Shown here one piece after another: positions 39,056 through 50,630 of a stretch of 64,000 bases of DNA; the stretch's first letter is position 1; every line of letters starts with the position of its first letter. The notes beneath the pieces are model-generated. The model searched no databases, was not told where the DNA came from, and was given only the letters and a program-made list of their open reading frames with translations. The DNA is from an uncultured Verrucomicrobiae bacterium (GTDB taxonomy: Bacteria > Verrucomicrobiota > Verrucomicrobiia > Chthoniobacterales > JAFAMB01), in contig CAVXLD010000012.1 of assembly GCA_963762565.1 (NCBI GenBank), positions 128,001 to 192,000 of the forward strand. The letters are read 5' to 3'. Both the position numbers and the translations under genes were made by a program.

Positions 39056-39172
39056 GGGAGGGATCGGGTCCCCGCGATCAGTGTTTGCGGAGCCGAGTAC
39101 AGACCAGATCGAGCGTTTGGCTGAGTCTACGATGCACACCTGTTCGCGGCGCGCGGGGACGCGCGCCCTCCC
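39056..39172 (+). repeat. family A REPIN-like element
   Basis: Both arms present, 67-nt interior. Confidence 0.8.
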
Positions 39173-39280
39173 GGCTCAGGGGCCACTTGGTCCGCTTCCC
39201 ACGAGAACGAAGCTAGCTCTTCTTTTCAACCAAATCGCACTGAGGGGCTTGAAACAAATCTAGGACTGGGAGAAAGCCTT

Positions 39281-41122: not shown

Positions 41123-41293
41123 AGCAGGGAATCACCTTTCAGGCAGGCAGCTCGAGGAGTTAGGTCGCCCAACGAAAGTTAATCGGTGCGCCAAAAATCT
41201 TTAATAAAAGATTTTGGCCCCGATTGCCGTCGGAATCCGCATTTTGTCTACGGATGCCCGAATTCCGCAAACGCTGGATGAGCGTTAGCCTAC

Positions 41294-43402
41294 TTGGGCG
41301 TCAGGATGGTCAACTACAACCTAACTATGTTAGCTGCATTACTTCCTGAGAGCAGCGCTCTTATCGAGCGTTTCTTTCGTCGTTTTCCTAAATTGCGTCA
41401 AGCAGGAGATATTACCCTTGGCGTTTTTGCCTGGTTCGTTGTGGCAACCGGCAGTGCGTCCGGTCAGTCAGCTGTCACCGTCGATCTTTCGCCCATGGTG
41501 GCCGAATCAACGTTGCTCTCCCCAGTCGATTCTGCAAAACAAATTAGTGTAGTGCTGGCACTGCCGTTGGCAGATAGTCAGGGGGCAGCGGACTTTGCCC
41601 AGCATGTATCGACTCCCGGAGATCCTCTCTATAGGCATTACCTAACTCCGGAGCAGTTCGCAGCCAGATACGGGGCTAATCCGGCGGATTATGCCGCAGT
41701 CGAAGAATGGGCGAAGGGTAATGGTTTAGAGATCGTGCAAGAATCTAGTGCGCGAACAGCCCTTACTGTGCGCGGCACTGCCGCCCAATTTGAAGCACTG
41801 TTTAAAACGCGGCTCGATCTTTATCAATCAATCGGCGGCGAGCAATTCTATTCTGCAAGTGTCAAGCCAAGCATACCGGACGTACTTGGTTCTAAGATCG
41901 ATGGAGTAATAGGACTAACCAACAGCGCCCCGCATTCGCGAGGCGCCAGAGTCCACCGGACGTTTGGCGACCATCCGAATACCTCGCCCGTAGGTCCCGA
42001 TACGGCTGGCGGAACGGGCCCGGGCGGAGCGTTTAGTTCAGCGGATTTGCGCACCGCCTATTGCATCCCGGCCTTCGGCGACGCGGAGCCGCAAACTGTG
42101 GCTTTGTTTGAAGAGTTCGGTGCCTACGAAAGCGATGTTAGATCCGATGTCCAGGTCTACTTGAAACAGATGGGATTGTCATTTCCGGCCCTACAATTCG
42201 TGAATGTCGAACATTTGAACAGGGGCTTTGAAAATCTTGCTGTGGAATTAACGACGGTTACCGACATTGAAATGGTCGTTGGAATAAATCCCGCGGTCAA
42301 AGAAGTACTCGTTTACGAAGGAGGGTACAATTTGGAGAACGGGCTTATCGATGGTCTGCAACGCGTGGCCGCGGACAATACAGCCAAAATATTGAACATC
42401 TCATATTGGGCAGATGAAGTGCAGCAGGGTGCTGCCCAGATCGCAGCAGAAAATACCGCCTTGACCCAATTAGCCGCTCAAGGCATCACGGTGCTTGCCG
42501 CCGCCGGGGATGACGGGGCCTATGGCGTGATCGGCCTACAGTCCGCTTTAAATGCACCAGACCCGGGGTCTCAACCCTTAGTTACTTGTGTTGGCGGCAC
42601 GACTTTATACACCGGGCCAGGAGAAGACTATGCAGCGGAAACCGTCTGGAACGACCTGGGACTGGGCGAGGGTGCAACCGGTGGTGGCATCAGCTCCCAT
42701 TGGCGGATTCCCTCGTATCAGAAATCAGCTAACCCCACGGTAAACGGCGGATCTGCCAAGATGCGCAACGTGCCGGACGTCGCGGCAATAGGCGATCCGG
42801 CAACTGGGGTAGCGATTTATTCTAAGATTAATGGCGGCTGGCTCCAAGAGGGCGGGACCGAAATTGCCACACCGTTGTGGGCCGGTTATATCAGCATTCT
42901 GAATGCAGGTCTTGAGTATCTGGTTGGCAGTAAGATCGGCCAATTTAACCCGCTCTTATACAGTACCAGGCCCAGTTTGCGAGACATACTGGACGGCGAC
43001 AACGGCGATCCACAGATCTACCAAATACCCGGTTACGACGCCGGATTGGGTTATGATAATTGCTCTGGCTTGGGCACGCCAGACGGGGGCGCTATAGCAT
43101 GGGATTTACTAACCAGAGAAGAAGGAGGGACGTCTCCCGACGATTTTACCACTTCCAATCAGGTGAGAGGGACTTCGGCGAGGATTTCCTGGACCGCCGC
43201 TAGCGGCGCGACCGGTTATGTTGTCTATCTATACTACGTTCTTCTAAATGGTTATACCTCAGTCGACGATGCCTTCGTCGCAAAAAGTGATCGCACGTTA
43301 GAACTGAAAAACCTACCGCGCGAGGTGATCTACAATTATGTCGTGACCGCAGTCAATTCAGGCGGATTCACATCCGAACTAGGGCAGTTCATAGTGCCCT
43401 AA
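41294..43402 (+). CDS. S53 (sedolisin/kumamolisin) family protein with pro-domain and FN3-like tail; catalytic residues substituted
   Basis: Pro-domain YRHYLTPEQFAARYG, AAGDDG, VGGT and RNVPDVAA; TTVTD replaces ExxxD and GGTE replaces GGTS; start codon uncertain. Confidence 0.85.
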   Translation: MGVRMVNYNLTMLAALLPESSALIERFFRRFPKLRQAGDITLGVFAWFVVATGSASGQSAVTVDLSPMVAESTLLSPVDSAKQISVVLALPLADSQGAADFAQHVSTPGDPLYRHYLTPEQFAARYGANPADYAAVEEWAKGNGLEIVQESSARTALTVRGTAAQFEALFKTRLDLYQSIGGEQFYSASVKPSIPDVLGSKIDGVIGLTNSAPHSRGARVHRTFGDHPNTSPVGPDTAGGTGPGGAFSSADLRTAYCIPAFGDAEPQTVALFEEFGAYESDVRSDVQVYLKQMGLSFPALQFVNVEHLNRGFENLAVELTTVTDIEMVVGINPAVKEVLVYEGGYNLENGLIDGLQRVAADNTAKILNISYWADEVQQGAAQIAAENTALTQLAAQGITVLAAAGDDGAYGVIGLQSALNAPDPGSQPLVTCVGGTTLYTGPGEDYAAETVWNDLGLGEGATGGGISSHWRIPSYQKSANPTVNGGSAKMRNVPDVAAIGDPATGVAIYSKINGGWLQEGGTEIATPLWAGYISILNAGLEYLVGSKIGQFNPLLYSTRPSLRDILDGDNGDPQIYQIPGYDAGLGYDNCSGLGTPDGGAIAWDLLTREEGGTSPDDFTTSNQVRGTSARISWTAASGATGYVVYLYYVLLNGYTSVDDAFVAKSDRTLELKNLPREVIYNYVVTAVNSGGFTSELGQFIVP

Positions 43403-43452
43403 CGATCAGTTCTCAGAAACTGATCTAACTTGAACTCACAATCTAAATTGTT

Positions 43453-45525
43453 ATGCAACTCGGACACAAAACTAAAACACAATTTCTTTCTCCCGGCGTC
43501 ATTTTGCGCGCCGTAGCGATTTTACTGGTGCTGACACCTTGTGTGGTCGCCGGTCAGTCGGACGCGACCATTCCGCTTTCCTCCATGATCGCTCAAGCAA
43601 CGCGTATATCCGCCCTTGATCCCAACAAAGAGATCAGCGTTGTTCTCTCTTTGCCACTCGCAGACGCTGAGGGAGCGGCTAGGTTCGTTCAGCGTGTCTC
43701 TGACCCAAAGGACCCGCTATACCGTCATTACCTTACCCCGGAAAGTTTCGCTGCCCGATTCGGCGCCAACGCCACGAATTATGCGGCTCTGAAAGATTGG
43801 GCGGTGGCGAATGGGCTGAGGATTTCGCAGGAATCCAGTGCACGAACGGCATTAACAGTGCGTGGCAGTGTCGGCCAATTCCAGACCCTATTTGAGACGA
43901 AGCTAGACATTTATCAGACTGCGGATGGAAAACAGTTTTATTCTGCCAGGTTGGCACCTACTATCCCAAGCGCTATCGCGTCCCAGGTTGACGGAGTGAT
44001 GGGGTTAACCAACAGCATCCAATATGCGCCGTTGGCCAAGATAGGTAAGATATTCGGTGAAAGCCCAATCACACCTGGCGTTCGTACCGACACCGCCGGC
44101 GGCACCGGTCCCGGGGGAGCTTACGCGGCTTCGGATTTGCGAACAGCCTATGGTATTCCCTCCTTTGGTGGAGTTGCGCCTCAGACAGTGGCGGTGTTTG
44201 AACAAGGCGGTTTTTTCAAAAGCGATGTCGCTGAGTACATAAGAACGATGAACCTGCCGACGCCGGACGTAAAATTTGTAAGCGTCAACGGTTACAACGG
44301 CGAGGTGAATGATGCGGGGGTAGAATTAGAGGCCGTGCTCGATATTGACATGGTCATTGGGATAAATCCCGCCGTAAGTAGCGTGCTCGTTTATGAAGAT
44401 GGGAACGACAGTTTCCAGGTGGCGATCATCGACGCGCTGCAACAAGTCGCCTCGGATAATAAGGCCCAAACGCTCAGTATATCTTACGGGCTCGATGAAG
44501 TGCAACAAGGCAACGCTCAGCTTAAAGCAGAAAACTCGGCGCTGACCCAGCTCGCTGCCCAAGGCATCACCGTTCTGGTTAGTTCTGGCGATGACGGCGC
44601 CTACGGCCGGACTGGAACTAGCCACTACCCCGCGCATTTGGAGGCGCCGGACCCAGGGTCGCAGCCACTGGTCACCTGCGTCGGCGGGACCAGCTTGTTC
44701 ACCGCGGCCGGTCAGGTGTACGACGGTGAAACGGTGTGGAACGAGCTGGGCGCCGGTTGGGGTGCAACGGGAGGAGGCGTTAGTTCTTACTGGTCGATAC
44801 CTGCCTACCAGGCACCGATTTACGTTAGCAACAACGGTGGATCTACCACGAAACGCAATGTTCCGGACGTTGCGGCAGTCGCCGATCCATTGGCTGGTGT
44901 CGCCGTCTATTCCCGGATAAATGGCGGTTGGCTCCAGATCGGCGGGACCAGCGTTTCCGCGCCCCTGTGGGCAGGTTACATCAGCATTATCAACGCTGGG
45001 GCGGAGTTTCTTCTCGGAGAGCAAATCGGGCAGTTCAACCCGCTCTTGTACAGCATCGAGTGGAACAGCGTAAACGAAGTGCCAAGCTATTATTTGTACG
45101 GTATCTTCGATGGCACCAACGGAAATGCGCAGCTTTACGGCACGCCCGGTTACAACGCCGGGAATTTTAATATCACTTATTGCAATTGTTGTGGAAACGG
45201 CACTCCCTGGGGCGGGATCTTCGCCTGGGTGGCGTTGCAAAGTTTAGCTACCGGAGGCGCAGAGCCGGGAACCTTTTTTATAGATCCCATCAGTGCACAA
45301 AGTACTTCCGCTACGCTGAGCTGGACCCCGTCTCGTGGAGCCACCGGTTATGTTGTGGCGACATATTATTCCGGACCTTACTTCACATACTCGACAGCTT
45401 ATGTGACAAAGGAGCAAAAGCTAAAATTGACAGGCTTGGTACCGGCGACGATCTATGATGTCTTCGTAACTGCGGTCTATCGGTACGGCTACTCGACGGT
45501 CCTGGCCGCCTTTATAACGAAATAG
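43453..45525 (+). CDS. S53 family serine-carboxyl protease with pro-domain and FN3-like tail
   Basis: Intact EAVLD, SSGDDG and GGTSVSAP; signal peptide. Confidence 0.92.
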   Translation: MQLGHKTKTQFLSPGVILRAVAILLVLTPCVVAGQSDATIPLSSMIAQATRISALDPNKEISVVLSLPLADAEGAARFVQRVSDPKDPLYRHYLTPESFAARFGANATNYAALKDWAVANGLRISQESSARTALTVRGSVGQFQTLFETKLDIYQTADGKQFYSARLAPTIPSAIASQVDGVMGLTNSIQYAPLAKIGKIFGESPITPGVRTDTAGGTGPGGAYAASDLRTAYGIPSFGGVAPQTVAVFEQGGFFKSDVAEYIRTMNLPTPDVKFVSVNGYNGEVNDAGVELEAVLDIDMVIGINPAVSSVLVYEDGNDSFQVAIIDALQQVASDNKAQTLSISYGLDEVQQGNAQLKAENSALTQLAAQGITVLVSSGDDGAYGRTGTSHYPAHLEAPDPGSQPLVTCVGGTSLFTAAGQVYDGETVWNELGAGWGATGGGVSSYWSIPAYQAPIYVSNNGGSTTKRNVPDVAAVADPLAGVAVYSRINGGWLQIGGTSVSAPLWAGYISIINAGAEFLLGEQIGQFNPLLYSIEWNSVNEVPSYYLYGIFDGTNGNAQLYGTPGYNAGNFNITYCNCCGNGTPWGGIFAWVALQSLATGGAEPGTFFIDPISAQSTSATLSWTPSRGATGYVVATYYSGPYFTYSTAYVTKEQKLKLTGLVPATIYDVFVTAVYRYGYSTVLAAFITK

Positions 45526-45781
45526 CCTCCTGCTCGCGGCACGAGTCTTGGCGGTTGGTTTGTGCTGGAAATGGATGACGCTGGAGCCGTGAATCTTACG
45601 AGGTACGGAGAGATGTTCGGCGTCATCCGTCAGGCCAGAGTGGTCATATCATCTTTTTGCAAAGTGGTATTATTTGACCCTAATCCCATGCTCTGAGGTC
45701 TTGACGATGCTCTGGCCAGTTTGGTAAAGGCTCATTGGCCGGTTTTGCCGGCCATTTGGTCTTACTAACTGGATCAAGCAT

Positions 45782-46438
45782 ATGGAGGATCGTCTGCCGA
45801 CGTCGTGCCGTAGGTTATTTCACGACGGAACGGTTCCATCCAACCCCGGGCAGGTCGAGATAACCCAACTGTTAGGGAGATGGAGAGAAGGGGATGCGTC
45901 GGCTCTGGAAAGCTTAACGGAACGGGTTTACGACCAACTTCGGGATCTGGCAAACCTAGCGTTGGGCAAGGATTGGGCAGCGAAATCGTTGCAACCGACG
46001 GAACTCGTTCATGAGGCATACCTCAAGCTGATGGGCGCCCAGAATGTCGACTGGAACAATCGCTCACATTTCTTCGCGGTCGCCGGGCGGGTGATGCGCC
46101 GGGTTCTCGTGGATCGTGCGCGCAACCGGAATGCTCGGAAACGGGGCGGCGACGCCACAAAGATCTCGATCGAGTCTGGCGCTGCCGATTTTGCTGAGGC
46201 AAACCGCCGGACGGTCGATCTGATCGAGCTGGATTTGGCCTTGAAGGAATTGGAGAACCAAGGCGAAGATTTGAGCCGGCTTGTTGAGCTCCGGTTTTTC
46301 GCAGGGATGACCATTGAAGAGACCGCTGAGGTGCTCGGCGTATCGCCGCGCACCGTCAAACGGGATTGGCAATTTGCGAAAGCGTGGCTCAAGCGGCGGC
46401 TGGAGCCGCAGACAGAGAAAGGGTGCAGGCATGCTTAA
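45782..46438 (+). CDS. ECF sigma-70 factor (kinase-associated type)
   Basis: ITQLL..WREGD, LQPTELVHEAYLKL, RSHFFAVA..MRRVLVD.AR and TVKRDWQFAKAWL. Confidence 0.92.
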   Translation: MEDRLPTSCRRLFHDGTVPSNPGQVEITQLLGRWREGDASALESLTERVYDQLRDLANLALGKDWAAKSLQPTELVHEAYLKLMGAQNVDWNNRSHFFAVAGRVMRRVLVDRARNRNARKRGGDATKISIESGAADFAEANRRTVDLIELDLALKELENQGEDLSRLVELRFFAGMTIEETAEVLGVSPRTVKRDWQFAKAWLKRRLEPQTEKGCRHA

Positions 46439-49334
46439 CAACTTGTCAGGCAATTATCCCCCCAATGAAGTCGCCTACGGTTCGAGGACGCTCAGAAATC
46501 TGTTCGCGGAAGCTATTGAAGTCAGCCCGGTGGACCGGGTTGGCTGGTTGGAACAGAGCTGCGCTCAGAATCCTGAGTTAGCGGAGGAGCTCCTTTCATT
46601 GCTGAGGTATGCCGATGCAGAAGATCCTTTTTTGGAGGTATCGGTTTCTCAATTTGGTCAGGCCGCATTTGAGCGACATCAGGAACTGGAGAATGAGAGG
46701 CCCCAGAGAGAGACTCTTGAGTCTGGGAGTTTAGTCGGGTCCTGGCGCGTTCTGCGTGAGATTTCCGGTGGCGGGATGGGCAGTGTCTATCTGGCGGAGC
46801 GGTACTTCGATGACGATGAATCGTCCAAACAGCGTGCCGCTATCAAAGTGATGCGGCATCGAGTTGATCCGGAGTTGTTTGCTCACCGGTTCCGGCGGGA
46901 GCGCCGGATTCTCGCCCAACTTAATCATCCTTTTATAGCTCGGTTTTTAGAAGGGGGCGCCTTAGAGAATGGATCGCCTTACCTGGTACTCGAATACGTG
47001 GAAGGCGAACCAATTAAAGAGTATTGCCGGAATCAGCGCCTTAGTCTGACAGATATTCTGAAACTCTTTTGCCGGGTCTGCTCGGCGGTAGCTTACGCAC
47101 ACATGAATCTGGTTGTGCATCGTGATCTTAAGCCCTCGAATATTCTCGTTACTCGCGACGGTACACCGCGGTTAATCGATTTCGGGATTGCGAAAGTTCT
47201 GGCGACCAACCAGGACGCGAGTTTGAGAGATGCCACCATTGGGATAGGACCCTGTACACCGCGATATTGCAGTCCGGAACAGGTCCGCGGTGAGGAGATA
47301 ACAACGGCGGCGGACATTTTCTCGCTCGGAATTATTCTTTATGAGCTCATCACCCGGTTTCATCCATTTGATCCGGCGACCAATGACGAAACCACCGCCG
47401 GATTTGAACTGCTAAAAAGAATCTGCGAGCACGAAGCGCGGAGGTTATCCGCCCACCCAGGAAAGAGCAGCGGGATCAAAATTCCTAAATCACAGCGGAA
47501 TGATCTTGAAGCCGTCATTTTGAAGGCGCTGCAAAAACAACCATGCGATCGGTACAAGAGTGTTGAGCATCTGGTCGAGGATATTGAGAATTTCTTGGAC
47601 TCCCGTCCACTCGCCGCCCGGCCGCAGAGTTGGTGGTACCGAACCCGCAGTTTGGTCCGGCGCCATCCTACCGCAACAGTCGCAACTTCGATAACGATCC
47701 TTGCCGGAATAGCTGCGTTGGGAATGATCCTGGCTTCGGATCGCGCGGCTCGGACAGAACGGGATTACGCCCTTCAACAACGAGAACTGGCGGCCACTTC
47801 GGCGCGGAGCATGATCACTGAGCTGGCCTCTAGGCTCCAAGCAATGGCCGCTCCAGTGCAACACCGACTCGAATTGTTAAAGCGCGCGATGCAAGTGTTC
47901 GATCAGATCGATTCTACGGGCCGTCCTGGATTCGATCCCGGACGAAGCGCAGTGCAACGTCGCGCCGAGCTCAGTACGGAGATTACGCTGGCCCGCGCTC
48001 TAGAGGAAATGGGAGATTTCCAGGCCGCTCTTCTACGCACCCAAAAAGCAGAGTCCCGAGCTACAAACCTCATGCAAGGTCAACGCCTGATTCCCGACAA
48101 TCAGCTCGCGATGGCAGGTGTATTTTTGGAGAAGAGCCGGCTACTTTCAAAGGTAGGAGATAAGTCTAGTGCAGAGAAAGCGCTTGATGAGGCTTGTCGA
48201 ATACTGCGAGTAATGGAGGAGGCCGGGGCTACGCCGGCTGATCTACAAGAACGTCTCGCAATTCTAGAGTGCGATTCACGCGTCTTGAAGGGCAAAATGG
48301 AGGATCGCGCGGTTCAACCAGGGCAGGCTATAAAAACGCTATGTGAAGCAGTCGCATTTGGAGAAAGAGCCTTCGCAACACGACCCTGTGACTTTGATGC
48401 CGTCATCTCTTATACGAACAGTTTGCAAGCGTTGGGCAGCTCCTATTTCGAGATCGGTAAATTAGATCTCTTTTTGTCGACGATCCGGAGGGCGCTGAAT
48501 GTTTTGAAGGAAGCGGCAGCGCGGGCGCCTGCTGATATTGCTCTTCAGCGGCGTTCAGACCTGGCCATTGCTCACTGGAGTTTCCTGGTGACCTATGCGA
48601 GTGACTCGGTCGAAAAAGTCAGCGTTCCGGGCGAGTCGCTAGCGATCCTCAGAAGGCTATGTGCTGCCGATCCAGACAACTTCGACCTCTTGCAAGATTT
48701 GCTTCAAGAGCTCAGTAACTATGGTACCTATTTCTTCGACAAGGGACTGTACGAACAATCGGGCAAGCTGCTCAGAGAAGCTGTAGACCTAGCCGAAAAA
48801 TTAACCCCGCAAAAAAGGGGAAGTGTTTTTGCCAGGACTTGCCTCGTCCAGGCCGCGTATAATCTATTTCAATGTTACACGAAGATTCGAGACTCTCGGG
48901 CGGCAGAAAGGTTAAGCAGCGAAGTGTTTGTCCCGTTGGCGCAGGAGCTCGAGAAGCAGACCGCTAGTCCGGAAAACCGATGGGCCGAGGCGGCTTGTTA
49001 CGATGTGCAAGGACAGATTGCCGGCTACAACCGGGACACTGGGCAAGAGAGCGCGTTTTTCCGTCGAGGTATAGAGCTTCTGGAAGAGAATCTCCGTGTC
49101 CGTGACTTGGCAGGCGAACGCGCATTCTATGCGAGCTTGCTTTCGAAATACGGAGAGGCGTTGGGCGAAGCTGGAGAAGTAGAATCGGCGCACGAGTATA
49201 TCCGGCGCGGGCTTGGCATCATGTGTGCACTTCGCGACAGCAAATCCATTATGCTGACTGGCGATCTTTTGAGGGACATTTCTGAGGCCGAAGAAAATTT
49301 GCAGCGATATAGGGGCGTTGTGGGGCAAGAATGA
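46431..49334 (+). CDS. Hanks-type Ser/Thr protein kinase with TM helix and TPR-like C-terminus
   Basis: GGMGSVY, AIK, HRDLKPSN, DFGIAK and YCSPE; start overlaps the ECF stop. Confidence 0.92.
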   Translation: MLNNLSGNYPPNEVAYGSRTLRNLFAEAIEVSPVDRVGWLEQSCAQNPELAEELLSLLRYADAEDPFLEVSVSQFGQAAFERHQELENERPQRETLESGSLVGSWRVLREISGGGMGSVYLAERYFDDDESSKQRAAIKVMRHRVDPELFAHRFRRERRILAQLNHPFIARFLEGGALENGSPYLVLEYVEGEPIKEYCRNQRLSLTDILKLFCRVCSAVAYAHMNLVVHRDLKPSNILVTRDGTPRLIDFGIAKVLATNQDASLRDATIGIGPCTPRYCSPEQVRGEEITTAADIFSLGIILYELITRFHPFDPATNDETTAGFELLKRICEHEARRLSAHPGKSSGIKIPKSQRNDLEAVILKALQKQPCDRYKSVEHLVEDIENFLDSRPLAARPQSWWYRTRSLVRRHPTATVATSITILAGIAALGMILASDRAARTERDYALQQRELAATSARSMITELASRLQAMAAPVQHRLELLKRAMQVFDQIDSTGRPGFDPGRSAVQRRAELSTEITLARALEEMGDFQAALLRTQKAESRATNLMQGQRLIPDNQLAMAGVFLEKSRLLSKVGDKSSAEKALDEACRILRVMEEAGATPADLQERLAILECDSRVLKGKMEDRAVQPGQAIKTLCEAVAFGERAFATRPCDFDAVISYTNSLQALGSSYFEIGKLDLFLSTIRRALNVLKEAAARAPADIALQRRSDLAIAHWSFLVTYASDSVEKVSVPGESLAILRRLCAADPDNFDLLQDLLQELSNYGTYFFDKGLYEQSGKLLREAVDLAEKLTPQKRGSVFARTCLVQAAYNLFQCYTKIRDSRAAERLSSEVFVPLAQELEKQTASPENRWAEAACYDVQGQIAGYNRDTGQESAFFRRGIELLEENLRVRDLAGERAFYASLLSKYGEALGEAGEVESAHEYIRRGLGIMCALRDSKSIMLTGDLLRDISEAEENLQRYRGVVGQE

Positions 49335-49409
49335 GAACTCAGCGGCTCCAGCGGGCCCAACCGTCACTCCGATTCCATAATCGCTGCGCGGCGAATCCAG
49401 CGCACTAGT

Positions 49410-50630
49410 CTATGCTTTCGCTGGCGGTGTACTCTCGATCAGTTCCAGATACGTCGACTCCAGTTTCCGGATTTGGGTTTCCGAGTCGAATTCCCGGGAT
49501 ACGGTCTCGCCAGCGCGCAGGCTAAGATCTATCACGAGTTGCCGGTTTTCGGCCAATTGGTTCATCCAATGATAAACCCCCTCATGATCCCGTTCATCCA
49601 CCAGAATACCATTATGCAGATGCTCGATTGCCTCAGGGATTCCACCGTGACGAGTGGCAATGCTGCATAGGCCTGTTGCCATAGCTTCCAACAGGCTATT
49701 CGGGATCCCTTCGTTGTCGCCGCCGGAGGTAGTCTCACTTGGATGAATGAAGAGATGGCTCTCATAATAGCGCTTTAGGAGCTCCTCCTTGGTGAGAAAG
49801 CCGGTAAATTCAACCCGGCTGCGGATATCGAGCTGTTGCGCCAATTGCTCCAGCGGTTCACGCAACGGGCCGTCGCCGGCGATCACCAACCGTGATTGAG
49901 GCCAGCGTTGCGAAAATCTGGCGTAGGCTTTCAGCGTCACTTCGACTCCCTTCTTCTCGATTAGCCGGCAAGCCTGTAGAAGCTGGAAACCGCCGCTGTC
50001 TGGATAACTTCTGGCTCGGTAACCGAATTCTGAACTTGGTATACCCGTTCTCTGAATTCGGATTTTATCCCGGCTACATCCAGCTGCGATCAGTGATTGT
50101 TGAATTGACTCCGACCTCGCCAACAGTAGATCAGCTGCTTCGAAAACTTGCTGCAACCGGCGCTGACCGGAAGACGTATTGAAGCCGACGGCAACATCCG
50201 CTCCGTGGAAGGAAACAACTATTGGGATCGCTCGTTTCCGAAACAACGGCAGCCAAAAAACTCCGTTATTGCCGAAGTAAATGTGCAGGAGACTGATGTT
50301 GTAGGCACGGATTAACTTCGAGAATGCCGTGCACTCACCGGGCAATGCCAACTGGGGACTACGCAGGATCTGTTTTTGCCAGATCCGTCGAGCCCAGCGG
50401 AGTTTTGAGCGGCGCACCAAATGGACGTTCGAGTACGGAAATTGGTCTGAGTTTTCGCGTTTAAACGCGAACGCGTGAATTTCTGCCCGTTTGGGCCCGA
50501 CCACTTGGCGGTAGACGTGCCACATCTCCGGTTTCAAGAAGGTCGGGCAAAAGATGCCGATGTTCGGGACGTCCAATTGCTCGCGTGTTGCTAAAGGTAA
50601 GGTACCTGTGCCCTGCCCCATAAATACCAT
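49410..50630 (-). CDS. glycosyltransferase family 4 (WcaL-like)
   Basis: SFHGAD, RLIEKKG and EGIPNSLLEAMATG..IATRHGGIPE. Confidence 0.9.
   Translation of the reverse strand: MVFMGQGTGTLPLATREQLDVPNIGIFCPTFLKPEMWHVYRQVVGPKRAEIHAFAFKRENSDQFPYSNVHLVRRSKLRWARRIWQKQILRSPQLALPGECTAFSKLIRAYNISLLHIYFGNNGVFWLPLFRKRAIPIVVSFHGADVAVGFNTSSGQRRLQQVFEAADLLLARSESIQQSLIAAGCSRDKIRIQRTGIPSSEFGYRARSYPDSGGFQLLQACRLIEKKGVEVTLKAYARFSQRWPQSRLVIAGDGPLREPLEQLAQQLDIRSRVEFTGFLTKEELLKRYYESHLFIHPSETTSGGDNEGIPNSLLEAMATGLCSIATRHGGIPEAIEHLHNGILVDERDHEGVYHWMNQLAENRQLVIDLSLRAGETVSREFDSETQIRKLESTYLELIESTPPAKA

Follow-up and report, generated by a model that had tools for sequence, protein, structure and literature searches.

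Sedolisins use their catalytic serine to remove their own pro-domain, and the key positions of kumamolisin are taken here to be Glu78, Asp82, Asp164 and Ser278. Among the subtilisin-like proteins of family S8, CspA and CspC of Clostridioides difficile are described in PMC7200643 as pseudoproteases which work with the active CspB. Full-text literature searches, together with a term search of PMC6278154, returned no paper describing maintained inactive sedolisins. The locus reported here lies in a 64,000-nucleotide window, the whole stretch of DNA that was analysed, on contig CAVXLD010000012.1 of an uncultured Verrucomicrobiae bacterium from soil.

The first gene of the locus (designated geneA; positions 41294..43402, forward strand) is predicted to encode a pro-kumamolisin/S53/FN3 protein of 702 amino acids, counted from a TTG codon, with a degenerate catalytic set. 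Its start is uncertain between TTG 41294, ATG 41306 and ATG 41327 on the same strand, and database gene calls begin at M5 or M12 (698 and 691 amino acids respectively). The N-terminus is a hydrophobic segment and the protein appears to be secreted. A pro-domain at residues 72-210 (41507..41923) matches Pfam Pro-kuma_activ (PF09286; E 6.1e-31, compared to E 5.5e-30 for the neighbouring gene) and was modelled with pLDDT >90; it is followed by an S53 catalytic-type domain at residues ~246-605 (42029..43108), which aligned to residues 5-355 of mature kumamolisin, and by a C-terminal fibronectin type III domain at residues 614-693 (43133..43372; Pfam fn3), seen as beta-strands in the model, all on the forward strand. 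The second gene (geneB; 43453..45525, 690 amino acids) is located 50 nt downstream on the same strand and is a canonical paralogue in which E293 and S500 are present, and a degenerate and a canonical copy stand side by side, as a preliminary description of tandem S53 paralogues had noted. The two proteins share 54% identity over 681 columns (BLASTP), and both also match Peptidase_S8 weakly and fn3 C-terminally in Pfam; an NCBIfam search gave nothing useful. The geneA sequence was identical in contigs from four metagenome runs of one study (all DNA runs), which argues against an assembly slip; reads of four runs of one study showed zero variant letters across 41294-45525, and members of the geneA cluster were near-identical, with differences mainly in the ends of the gene calls.

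The geneA protein was aligned to kumamolisin chains using phmmer (1t1e, E 2.2e-46; 1gt9, E 1.6e-39), whereby TTVTD falls on E-V-E-L-D (Glu78 to Asp82), AAGDDG on AAGDSG (Asp164) and GGTE on GGTS (Ser278). Thr320 (codon ACG, 42251..42253, forward strand) occupies the Glu78 position and Glu523 (codon GAA, 42860..42862, forward strand) that of Ser278, leaving both the general-base Glu and the catalytic Ser absent, while Asp324 (42263..42265, forward strand) and Asp406 (42509..42511, forward strand) retain Asp82 and the oxyanion Asp164. A codon check of geneB on the same strand gave GAG at 44329 for E293 and AGC at 44950 for S500. The tetrad is thus T/D/D/E in geneA compared to E/D/D/S in geneB, the latter being shared by 106 of the 120 top-scoring database matches. 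Both motif regions are gap-free between geneA and geneB in the BLASTP pairwise alignment, the nearest gap being a 4-residue geneA insert ~40 residues upstream of TTVTD. The preliminary description had reported the same two motifs with the same ACG, GAA and AGC codons, aligned without gaps, in a protein keeping the second Asp, GDDG, the pro-domain and a full frame, and each of these points was borne out. By alignment, geneA is a clear homologue of an active enzyme without the essential catalytic residues; with Ser and Glu replaced, it is presumably not a functional Ser-Glu-Asp peptidase.

The AlphaFold model of geneA (pLDDT 88.7, pTM 0.89) had pro-kumamolisin 1t1e as its best Foldseek match (E 8.6e-40, TM 0.84). 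This intact pro-kumamolisin carries Ala at the Ser position in the alignment, as expected if self-processing depends on the Ser. A complex between mature geneA and mature geneB was weakly supported by prediction, with a score of 0.43 (runs 0.57, 0.43 and 0.01; best of three controls 0.00), with contact agreement of at least 97% and partner pLDDT of at least 89, although the two paralogues may be placed together through their likeness. Among solved complexes, 116 of 157 attained the mark used for this score, as did 2 of 215 mismatches; scores of 0.60 or less comprised only 18 of the 157 solved complexes and both mismatches.

The only geneA orthologue found was the metagenomic protein P0006 (57% identical), which has derived indels and the C-terminus in common with geneA and keeps a full frame, as does geneA (~700 codons each). 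Its tetrad is V/D/D/E; it has Ser->Glu as in geneA, but Val at the Glu78 position, and the equivalents of Asp82, Asp164 and Glu32 are retained in both. The geneA/P0006 clade received an SH-aLRT support of 99, and geneB with its canonical orthologue P0007 formed a sister-type clade (support 97), both inside a 6-row clade (support 95). P0006 and P0007 come from one 5958-nt contig, the length of which suggests that they are adjacent. In a geneA region search and an A2 profile search only geneA itself and P0006 exceeded 1400 bits; the best true single-domain match after them reached 878 bits, P0003 (1183 bits) being a 990-residue protein with two QDNG catalytic domains. A search of 1.84 billion representatives (50% representatives) returned 20515 matches at E <= 0.001, and among the best 150 of these there was no Ser->Glu change (139 were EDDS and 4 were fragments without the Ser-position column). 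The pattern GGWLQxGGTE gave two matches in 185,579 species genomes, a collection which may leave out the window's own genome, and both were chance frames outside S53. Metagenome contigs screened with pro-domain patterns yielded 13 loci with no GGTE, and the P0006 contig was not recovered. No close geneA orthologue was found in the 43 family genomes searched, where the best non-self match (60%) was a canonical enzyme in a different context. The geneA orthologue set comprises two sequences, equal to one evolutionary event, and the co-occurrence of GGTE with Thr or Ser at the Glu78 position, put forward earlier as a check, was not seen, since the sole GGTE homologue found has Val there.

Loss of catalytic residues extends beyond this pair. 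Eleven paralogues of the subfamily were identified in this genome (8 EDDS, 1 TDDE, 1 QDNG and 1 EDNG). Of the three that are degenerate, two are beside an active copy, the EDNG copy coming after a canonical one. On a 62-row tree of the Verrucomicrobia subfamily there were 4 state changes, and on this tree catalytic residues were lost independently at least four times. ADDA proteins and canonical copies were also reported from contigs of equal size (P0029/P0098, 23118 nt; P0076/P0071, 11186 nt). The other degenerate Verrucomicrobia S53-FN3 members (QDNG, QDDG, ADDA, EDNG and a GGS deletion) resemble geneA in their architecture, full frames and lost catalytic residues; unlike geneA, they have Ser replaced by Gly or Ala, often with Asp164 neutralised, and Glu at the Ser position is confined among these types to the geneA/P0006 lineage.

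Both genes lie in a lineage-specific block of ~8.2 kb (41123..49409), between sppA and a reverse-strand gene at 49410..50630; three genomes of the same genus lack the block at this place. The block also contains an ECF sigma factor (45782..46438, forward strand; Pfam Sigma70_ECF, E 5.7e-53) and a Ser/Thr protein kinase with a TPR-like tail (46314..49334, forward strand; Pkinase, E 9.9e-44). The kinase reading frame as listed overlaps the sigma factor gene, and the true kinase start is therefore probably later. No direct or inverted repeats were found flanking the block when marks of a mobile element were sought, and scans for promoters and terminators gave no more than shuffled sequence would. 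A recurrent link between S53 genes and ECF/kinase genes in this genome was considered and dropped, as there was no other ECF match and only one other kinase had an S53 gene at 2 kb or less.

That geneA is a relaxed duplicate without a function of its own, heading for loss, was weighed against the rates of change along its lineage. The tree path was 1.03 for geneA-P0006 compared to 0.65 for geneB-P0007, which makes evolution of the geneA lineage ~1.6x faster than that of its active sister. Identity was lower within the geneA pair than within the geneB pair in the pro-domain (54% and 62%), the catalytic domain (64% and 75%) and FN3 (49% and 52%). Of 188 columns that were >=95% conserved among 104 canonical members, 23 are changed in geneA compared to 2 in geneB, with changes concentrated around the active-site motifs. 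The Glu78 position is still drifting (Thr in geneA, Val in P0006), three Thr have accumulated in the geneA helix which holds it, and no close orthologue was found in the 43 family genomes. Some relaxation on the geneA lineage is thus real. Against decay, ~700-codon frames are intact in two lineages only 57% identical, 165 of the 188 columns are kept in geneA and 162 in P0006 (86-88%), and linkage to a canonical copy is retained in both. The dN/dS comparison proposed earlier gave an omega of 0.13-0.18 between geneA and geneB (dN 0.38-0.39, dS 2.2-2.9), well under 1, though rough because dS is saturated. Six identical substitutions near the motifs (D346N, F347L, A350G, S368N, S403A and S523E) became fixed a single time and have since been retained in both orthologues. 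The Ser codon is AGY in 8 of 8 canonical subfamily paralogues, and since AGY to GAA takes three steps through non-Ser codons, inactivation preceded the fixation of Glu, which both lineages have kept. The sequence comparisons support maintenance of geneA, and simple decay is considered unlikely.

The preliminary description had raised an exchange of hydroxyl and acid positions, with Thr320 as nucleophile and Glu523 as base, but Thr and Glu sit at the two exchanged positions in geneA alone: Val, which cannot be a nucleophile, is at the Glu78 position in its only orthologue, and no further GGTE member was found by profile, in the best 150 of the 20515 representative matches, in the 185,579 genomes or at the 13 metagenome loci. 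The swapped site was accordingly rejected as extremely improbable, and the 'reciprocal' pattern is better read, from the aligned residues, as loss of Glu78 with gain of a carboxylate at 278. That carboxylate could in principle serve a Ser-independent carboxyl peptidase, in which Glu523 with Asp324 and/or Asp406 would activate water on the sedolisin scaffold; if true, clan SB would thereby gain a new catalytic type. Both orthologues share Glu at 278 and the Asp82, Asp164 and Glu32 equivalents, acids which other degenerate lineages (QDNG, EDNG, ADDA) neutralise instead, and sedolisins act at acidic pH, under which pairs of carboxylates can be catalytic. No precedent for such an enzyme is known, however, the Glu78 position is unconstrained, bulky residues replace nearby cleft-lining glycines and one residue conserved between two 57%-identical sequences is weak evidence, so that this reading is judged very unlikely. 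A less radical variant would be that pairs of dead and active sedolisins are obligate two-subunit proteases recurring in soil Verrucomicrobia. A dead copy might alternatively soak up inhibitors, or its pro-domain might temper the geneB enzyme; the kept and confidently folded pro-domain, the apparent secretion with a hydrophobic N-terminal segment and the linkage to an active copy would suit such a decoy or donor, but remodelling of the segments around the active-site motifs argues that the active enzyme is not closely imitated, and we regard the idea as improbable. The segments changed in both geneA and P0006 include ISYG, where Gly372 has become Trp or Tyr, and several of them presumably line the substrate cleft; their changes could block peptide binding, weakening the 'peptide binder' version of the earlier proposal.

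It is therefore likely, in our assessment, that geneA is a maintained pseudo-sedolisin, non-catalytic, kept by selection and travelling with the active geneB, and the maintained pseudoprotease named as one option in the preliminary description is favoured by the Ser->Glu orthologue, the full frames, the low omega and the columns kept. An active pro-kumamolisin/S53/FN3 protease would have been duplicated to give geneA, which then lost the nucleophilic Ser and the Glu acting as general base, after which selection would have retained the copy as a folded non-catalytic protein beside geneB. Lacking the catalytic Ser, the geneA product presumably cannot process itself, and would either stay in a form like the pro-form or undergo cleavage in trans, for which the geneB enzyme is the most plausible candidate. 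By analogy with the Csp proteins, it may then work by binding a substrate, an inhibitor or the geneB enzyme, rather than by cleaving. The Glu at 278 probably makes up for the buried negative charge lost at 78, as a structural compensation. A less radical variant would be that pairs of dead and active sedolisins are obligate two-subunit proteases recurring in soil Verrucomicrobia.

The losses across the subfamily, taken together with the two of three degenerate copies found beside an active one, suggest that secreted acid proteases have repeatedly benefited from a partner that does not cut. Source records label proteins of this subfamily 'subtilase family serine protease' or 'S8 family serine peptidase', and dead copies carry serine protease labels and make protease genes seem more numerous in soil metagenomes than they are. 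The geneA/geneB pair offers a tractable case for studying a dead protease working with a live one. The pseudo-sedolisin is another case of pseudoenzymes, which are already common, and reveals no new catalytic mechanism.

Compared to kumamolisin and other sedolisins (MEROPS S53; PDB 1t1e, 1gt9 and 1sio), geneA has the same pro-domain, subtilisin-like fold, Asp82 and Asp164 equivalents and aligned Ca-site aspartates, and differs in having Glu for the Ser nucleophile, Thr for the Glu general base and an extra C-terminal FN3 domain. CspA and CspC, as described in PMC7200643, differ in family (S8 rather than S53); they act inside the cell as spore proteins, and their regulatory role is proven, whereas that of geneA is only inferred; like geneA, they are catalytically dead subtilisin-fold paralogues, and their pseudo-active sites keep their shape.

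The first of two tandem S53 paralogues in the window (geneA, 41294..43402, + strand) is an ORF of 702 amino acids from a TTG start, for which database gene calls of the identical sequence give M5 (698 aa) or M12 (691 aa) as alternative starts. The second (geneB, 43453..45525, + strand, 690 aa) follows on the same strand after a gap of 50 nt. The encoded proteins share 54% identity over 681 columns. Both have an export-typical N-terminal hydrophobic segment (identified by eye in the translations), a Pro-kuma_activ domain (Pfam; E 6e-31 in geneA, 5.5e-30 in geneB), a weak match to Peptidase_S8 and, at the C-terminus, an fn3 domain. A twin-arginine-like motif, FFRRFPKL (41363-41385), precedes the hydrophobic segment of geneA, and RRRLGS does so in several paralogues and relatives, while geneB has no such motif; these motifs hint at possible Tat export of a pre-folded pro-enzyme. 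Kumamolisin chains were the top sequence matches among solved structures (1t1e, E 2.2e-46; 1gt9, E 1.6e-39). An AlphaFold model of geneA (80-row alignment; pLDDT 88.7, pTM 0.89) best matched intact pro-kumamolisin 1t1e (E 8.6e-40, TM 0.84 on target), with pro-TPP1 and mature kumamolisins as the next matches.

When geneA was aligned to the structures, TTVTD fell on kumamolisin E-V-E-L-D, AAGDDG on AAGDSG and GGTE on GGTS. At the aligned positions, which we take to be kumamolisin Glu78, Asp82, Asp164 and Ser278 (written below as four letters, EDDS when canonical), geneA has T320, D324, D406 and E523, compared to E293, D, D and S500 in geneB. The Thr and Glu reported for geneA in the preliminary description were confirmed, as alignment and codon check agree (ACG at 42251 and GAA at 42860, compared to GAG at 44329 and AGC at 44950 in geneB). 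Four metagenome runs of a single study have contigs covering the region, none with a variant letter, which rules out an assembly error as the source of the reading. Homology and fold place geneA in the S53 lineage, but two defining catalytic features are missing and it should therefore not be classed among the sedolisin peptidases.

A word-indexed search with the geneA catalytic region listed 120 matches (with source names such as 'subtilase family serine protease', 'kumamolisin' and 'S8 family serine peptidase [Verrucomicrobia bacterium]'), which were aligned and read at the four catalytic columns. EDDS was found in 106 of the 120 listed matches, QDDS in four (one residue deleted in GGTS), QDNG in three and ADDA in two, while QDDG, QDSS, EDES, TDDE (P0004, the window's own protein) and VDDE (protein P0006) occurred once each. 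The GGTS deletion was also present in three further EDDS rows. A clade comprising P0025-P0027, P0030, P0036, P0038, P0049 and P0058 has GGS in place of GGTS through this one-residue deletion, with Glu78 kept in some rows and Gln in others.

P0006 is 57% identical to geneA, shares the Ser to Glu change and has Val in place of Glu78. geneA and P0006 have in common an insert of four residues, a deletion of three and a C-terminal GQFIVP, none of which is present in geneB or the canonical protein P0007. P0006 and P0007 each derive from a single 5958-nt contig; on a contig of this size, two genes of ~2.1 kb each would be no more than about 1.7 kb apart. In a maximum likelihood tree (IQ-TREE quick, LG+G4) of 62 rows, hand-chosen to include all degenerate types, geneA grouped with P0006 (SH-aLRT 99) and geneB with P0007 (SH-aLRT 97), and both pairs formed a six-row clade with P0028 and P0088 (support 95); the two host organisms therefore diverged after the duplication and the Ser to Glu change.

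With a profile of geneA and P0006, only those two scored above 1400 bits and no further GGTE member was found; next came P0003 at 1183 bits, then 878 bits. P0003 (990 aa, metagenome) has two QDNG-type catalytic domains in succession within a single reading frame, through either genuine internal duplication or the collapse of a tandem pair during assembly. A HMMER search of 1.84 billion representatives gave 20515 matches at E <= 0.001. Ser to Glu occurred in none of the best 150, which comprised 139 EDDS rows, six full-length degenerate rows (QDDG, LGDT, QDDN, ENDG, EDDG and EDER), four fragments not spanning the Ser-position column and one fragment that spans it and reads Ser. An exact-pattern scan for GGWLQxGGTE in 185,579 species genomes returned two matches, both in unrelated frames, and there was no GGTE in 13 metagenome loci fetched by pro-domain patterns. 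Among 43 same-family genomes, the top non-self match to geneA (60%) was a canonical enzyme encoded at another genomic position. As no further member emerged across these searches, the GGTE lineage is rare, with two sequences of one origin.

Decay was weighed against constraint using 188 columns with at least 95% conservation in 104 canonical full-length members. Changes were found at 23 of these columns in geneA, 26 in P0006, two in geneB and nine in P0007. Those in geneA and P0006 were not scattered but clustered in a few segments beside the catalytic motifs: FEQGG after the Glu32 equivalent became FEEFG or LEQAP, ISYG became ISYW or ISFY, and the Glu78 helix and residues 343-350 were altered. 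Six changes identical in both orthologues (D346N, F347L, A350G, S368N, S403A and S523E) were fixed a single time and have been retained since. The tree path was 1.03 substitutions per site for geneA/P0006 and 0.65 for geneB/P0007, the former lineage being ~1.6x faster; identities within the two pairs were 54 and 62% in the pro-domain, 64 and 75% in the catalytic domain and 49 and 52% in FN3, respectively. Between geneA and geneB, dN was 0.38-0.39 and dS 2.2-2.9, giving an omega of 0.13-0.18 which is rough, as dS is saturated, and which is far from 1 even if the geneA branch takes two thirds of dN. The pattern is consistent with relaxed but real purifying selection on a protein with a remodelled active-site region, and not with a dying gene. 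The maintained pseudoprotease proposed in the preliminary description is supported by this omega, by an orthologue with the same Ser to Glu change and by full frames of about 700 codons in both geneA and P0006.

The other proposal, an enzyme in which hydroxyl and acid positions had swapped, is not supported: the sole GGTE homologue found, P0006, has Val where geneA has Thr, so that a hydroxyl is not conserved at the Glu78 position; the geneA helix has gained two further Thr. The Ser codon is AGY in all eight canonical subfamily paralogues of the window's genome, and AGY to GAA takes three steps, every path passing through residues without a hydroxyl, which argues that activity was lost first and that Glu came later and was kept in both lineages. 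The carboxylate at position 278 may restore charge beside Asp82 after loss of the buried Glu78, as structural compensation. That Glu523 instead takes part in water-based acid catalysis is very improbable, the point in its favour being that the Glu32, Asp82 and Asp164 equivalents are kept in geneA and P0006 and neutralised in other degenerate lineages.

The geneA product is a folded, putatively exported, pro-domain-bearing sedolisin homologue that has neither nucleophile nor general base, is maintained by selection and is encoded next to its active sister geneB. Sedolisins use their catalytic Ser to cut off their own pro-domain; intact pro-kumamolisin 1t1e, aligned to geneA, has Ala at this position. 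The geneA product would be unable to mature by itself, would either be cut by the geneB enzyme or stay pro-form-like, and would presumably act by binding. Complex prediction for mature geneA with mature geneB scored 0.43 (runs 0.57, 0.43 and 0.01), compared to 0.00 for the best of three controls, with contact agreement of at least 97% and partner pLDDT of at least 89. Of 157 solved complexes, 116 reached the mark, as did two of 215 mismatches, but only 18 of the 157 complexes did so at 0.60 or under, a range that contains both mismatches. The prediction thus lends weak support to a geneA-geneB heteromer, which is a possible arrangement.

Upstream of geneA lie miaB-like (radical SAM/TRAM) and sppA (Peptidase_S49) genes, and downstream of geneB an ECF sigma factor and a Ser/Thr kinase with a TPR-like tail, a known pairing. 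As listed, the kinase ORF begins at a TTG and shares 125 nt (46314-46438) with the sigma factor gene, so its real start is probably further downstream. The 8.2-kb block from geneA to the kinase (41123-49409) is absent at this place in three same-genus genomes, where sppA is followed directly by the orthologue of the window gene at 49410..50630 (- strand); in the other two same-genus genomes the contig ends first. No flanking repeats or composition shift were found at the block, which is either a lineage-specific insertion or was lost in relatives; in both cases the two protease genes move as a unit. Contigs from four soil metagenome runs reached a summed depth of 290-830, with many loose ends, over a GC-rich palindrome between miaB and sppA (39129-39176; GGCGCGCGGGGACGCGCGCC core), compared to about 5-20 around it. 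This palindrome is a short element common to very many contigs, perhaps REP-like, and matched no Rfam family or tRNA.

The window's genome (6.1 Mb, 15 contigs, 93.7% complete) has 11 full-length subfamily members and two distant S53 genes. EDDS was retained in eight of the 11; the three degenerate members are geneA and, outside the window, a QDNG copy (contig C1:386785-388968, - strand) and an EDNG copy (contig C7:103576-105798, + strand) directly after a canonical one (C7:101424-103670). The 62-row tree requires at least four changes between canonical and degenerate states. Its QDNG branches are very short, so this type is also conserved; P0031 and P0034 are close, slowly evolving metagenome relatives of it. 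The reported contig sizes of the two ADDA proteins (23118 and 11186 nt) equal those of canonical proteins, which hints at further such pairs. What makes the case interesting is mainly that, within one soil lineage, catalytic loss recurs and the degenerate copies are paired with active ones.

MEROPS lists 'non-peptidase homologues' in many families. A full-text literature search, judged from titles and the starts of abstracts, returned no paper on inactive sedolisins, and a term search of a fungal sedolisin analysis, which aimed to avoid pseudogenes, turned up no discussion of inactive members (PMC6278154). The closest working analogue of geneA/geneB is the CspA/CspC pseudoproteases with the CspB protease of Clostridioides difficile, which are subtilisin-like (S8); in that system the active protease is reported to be regulated by its dead paralogues, and activity was not regained when the triad was restored (PMC7200643).
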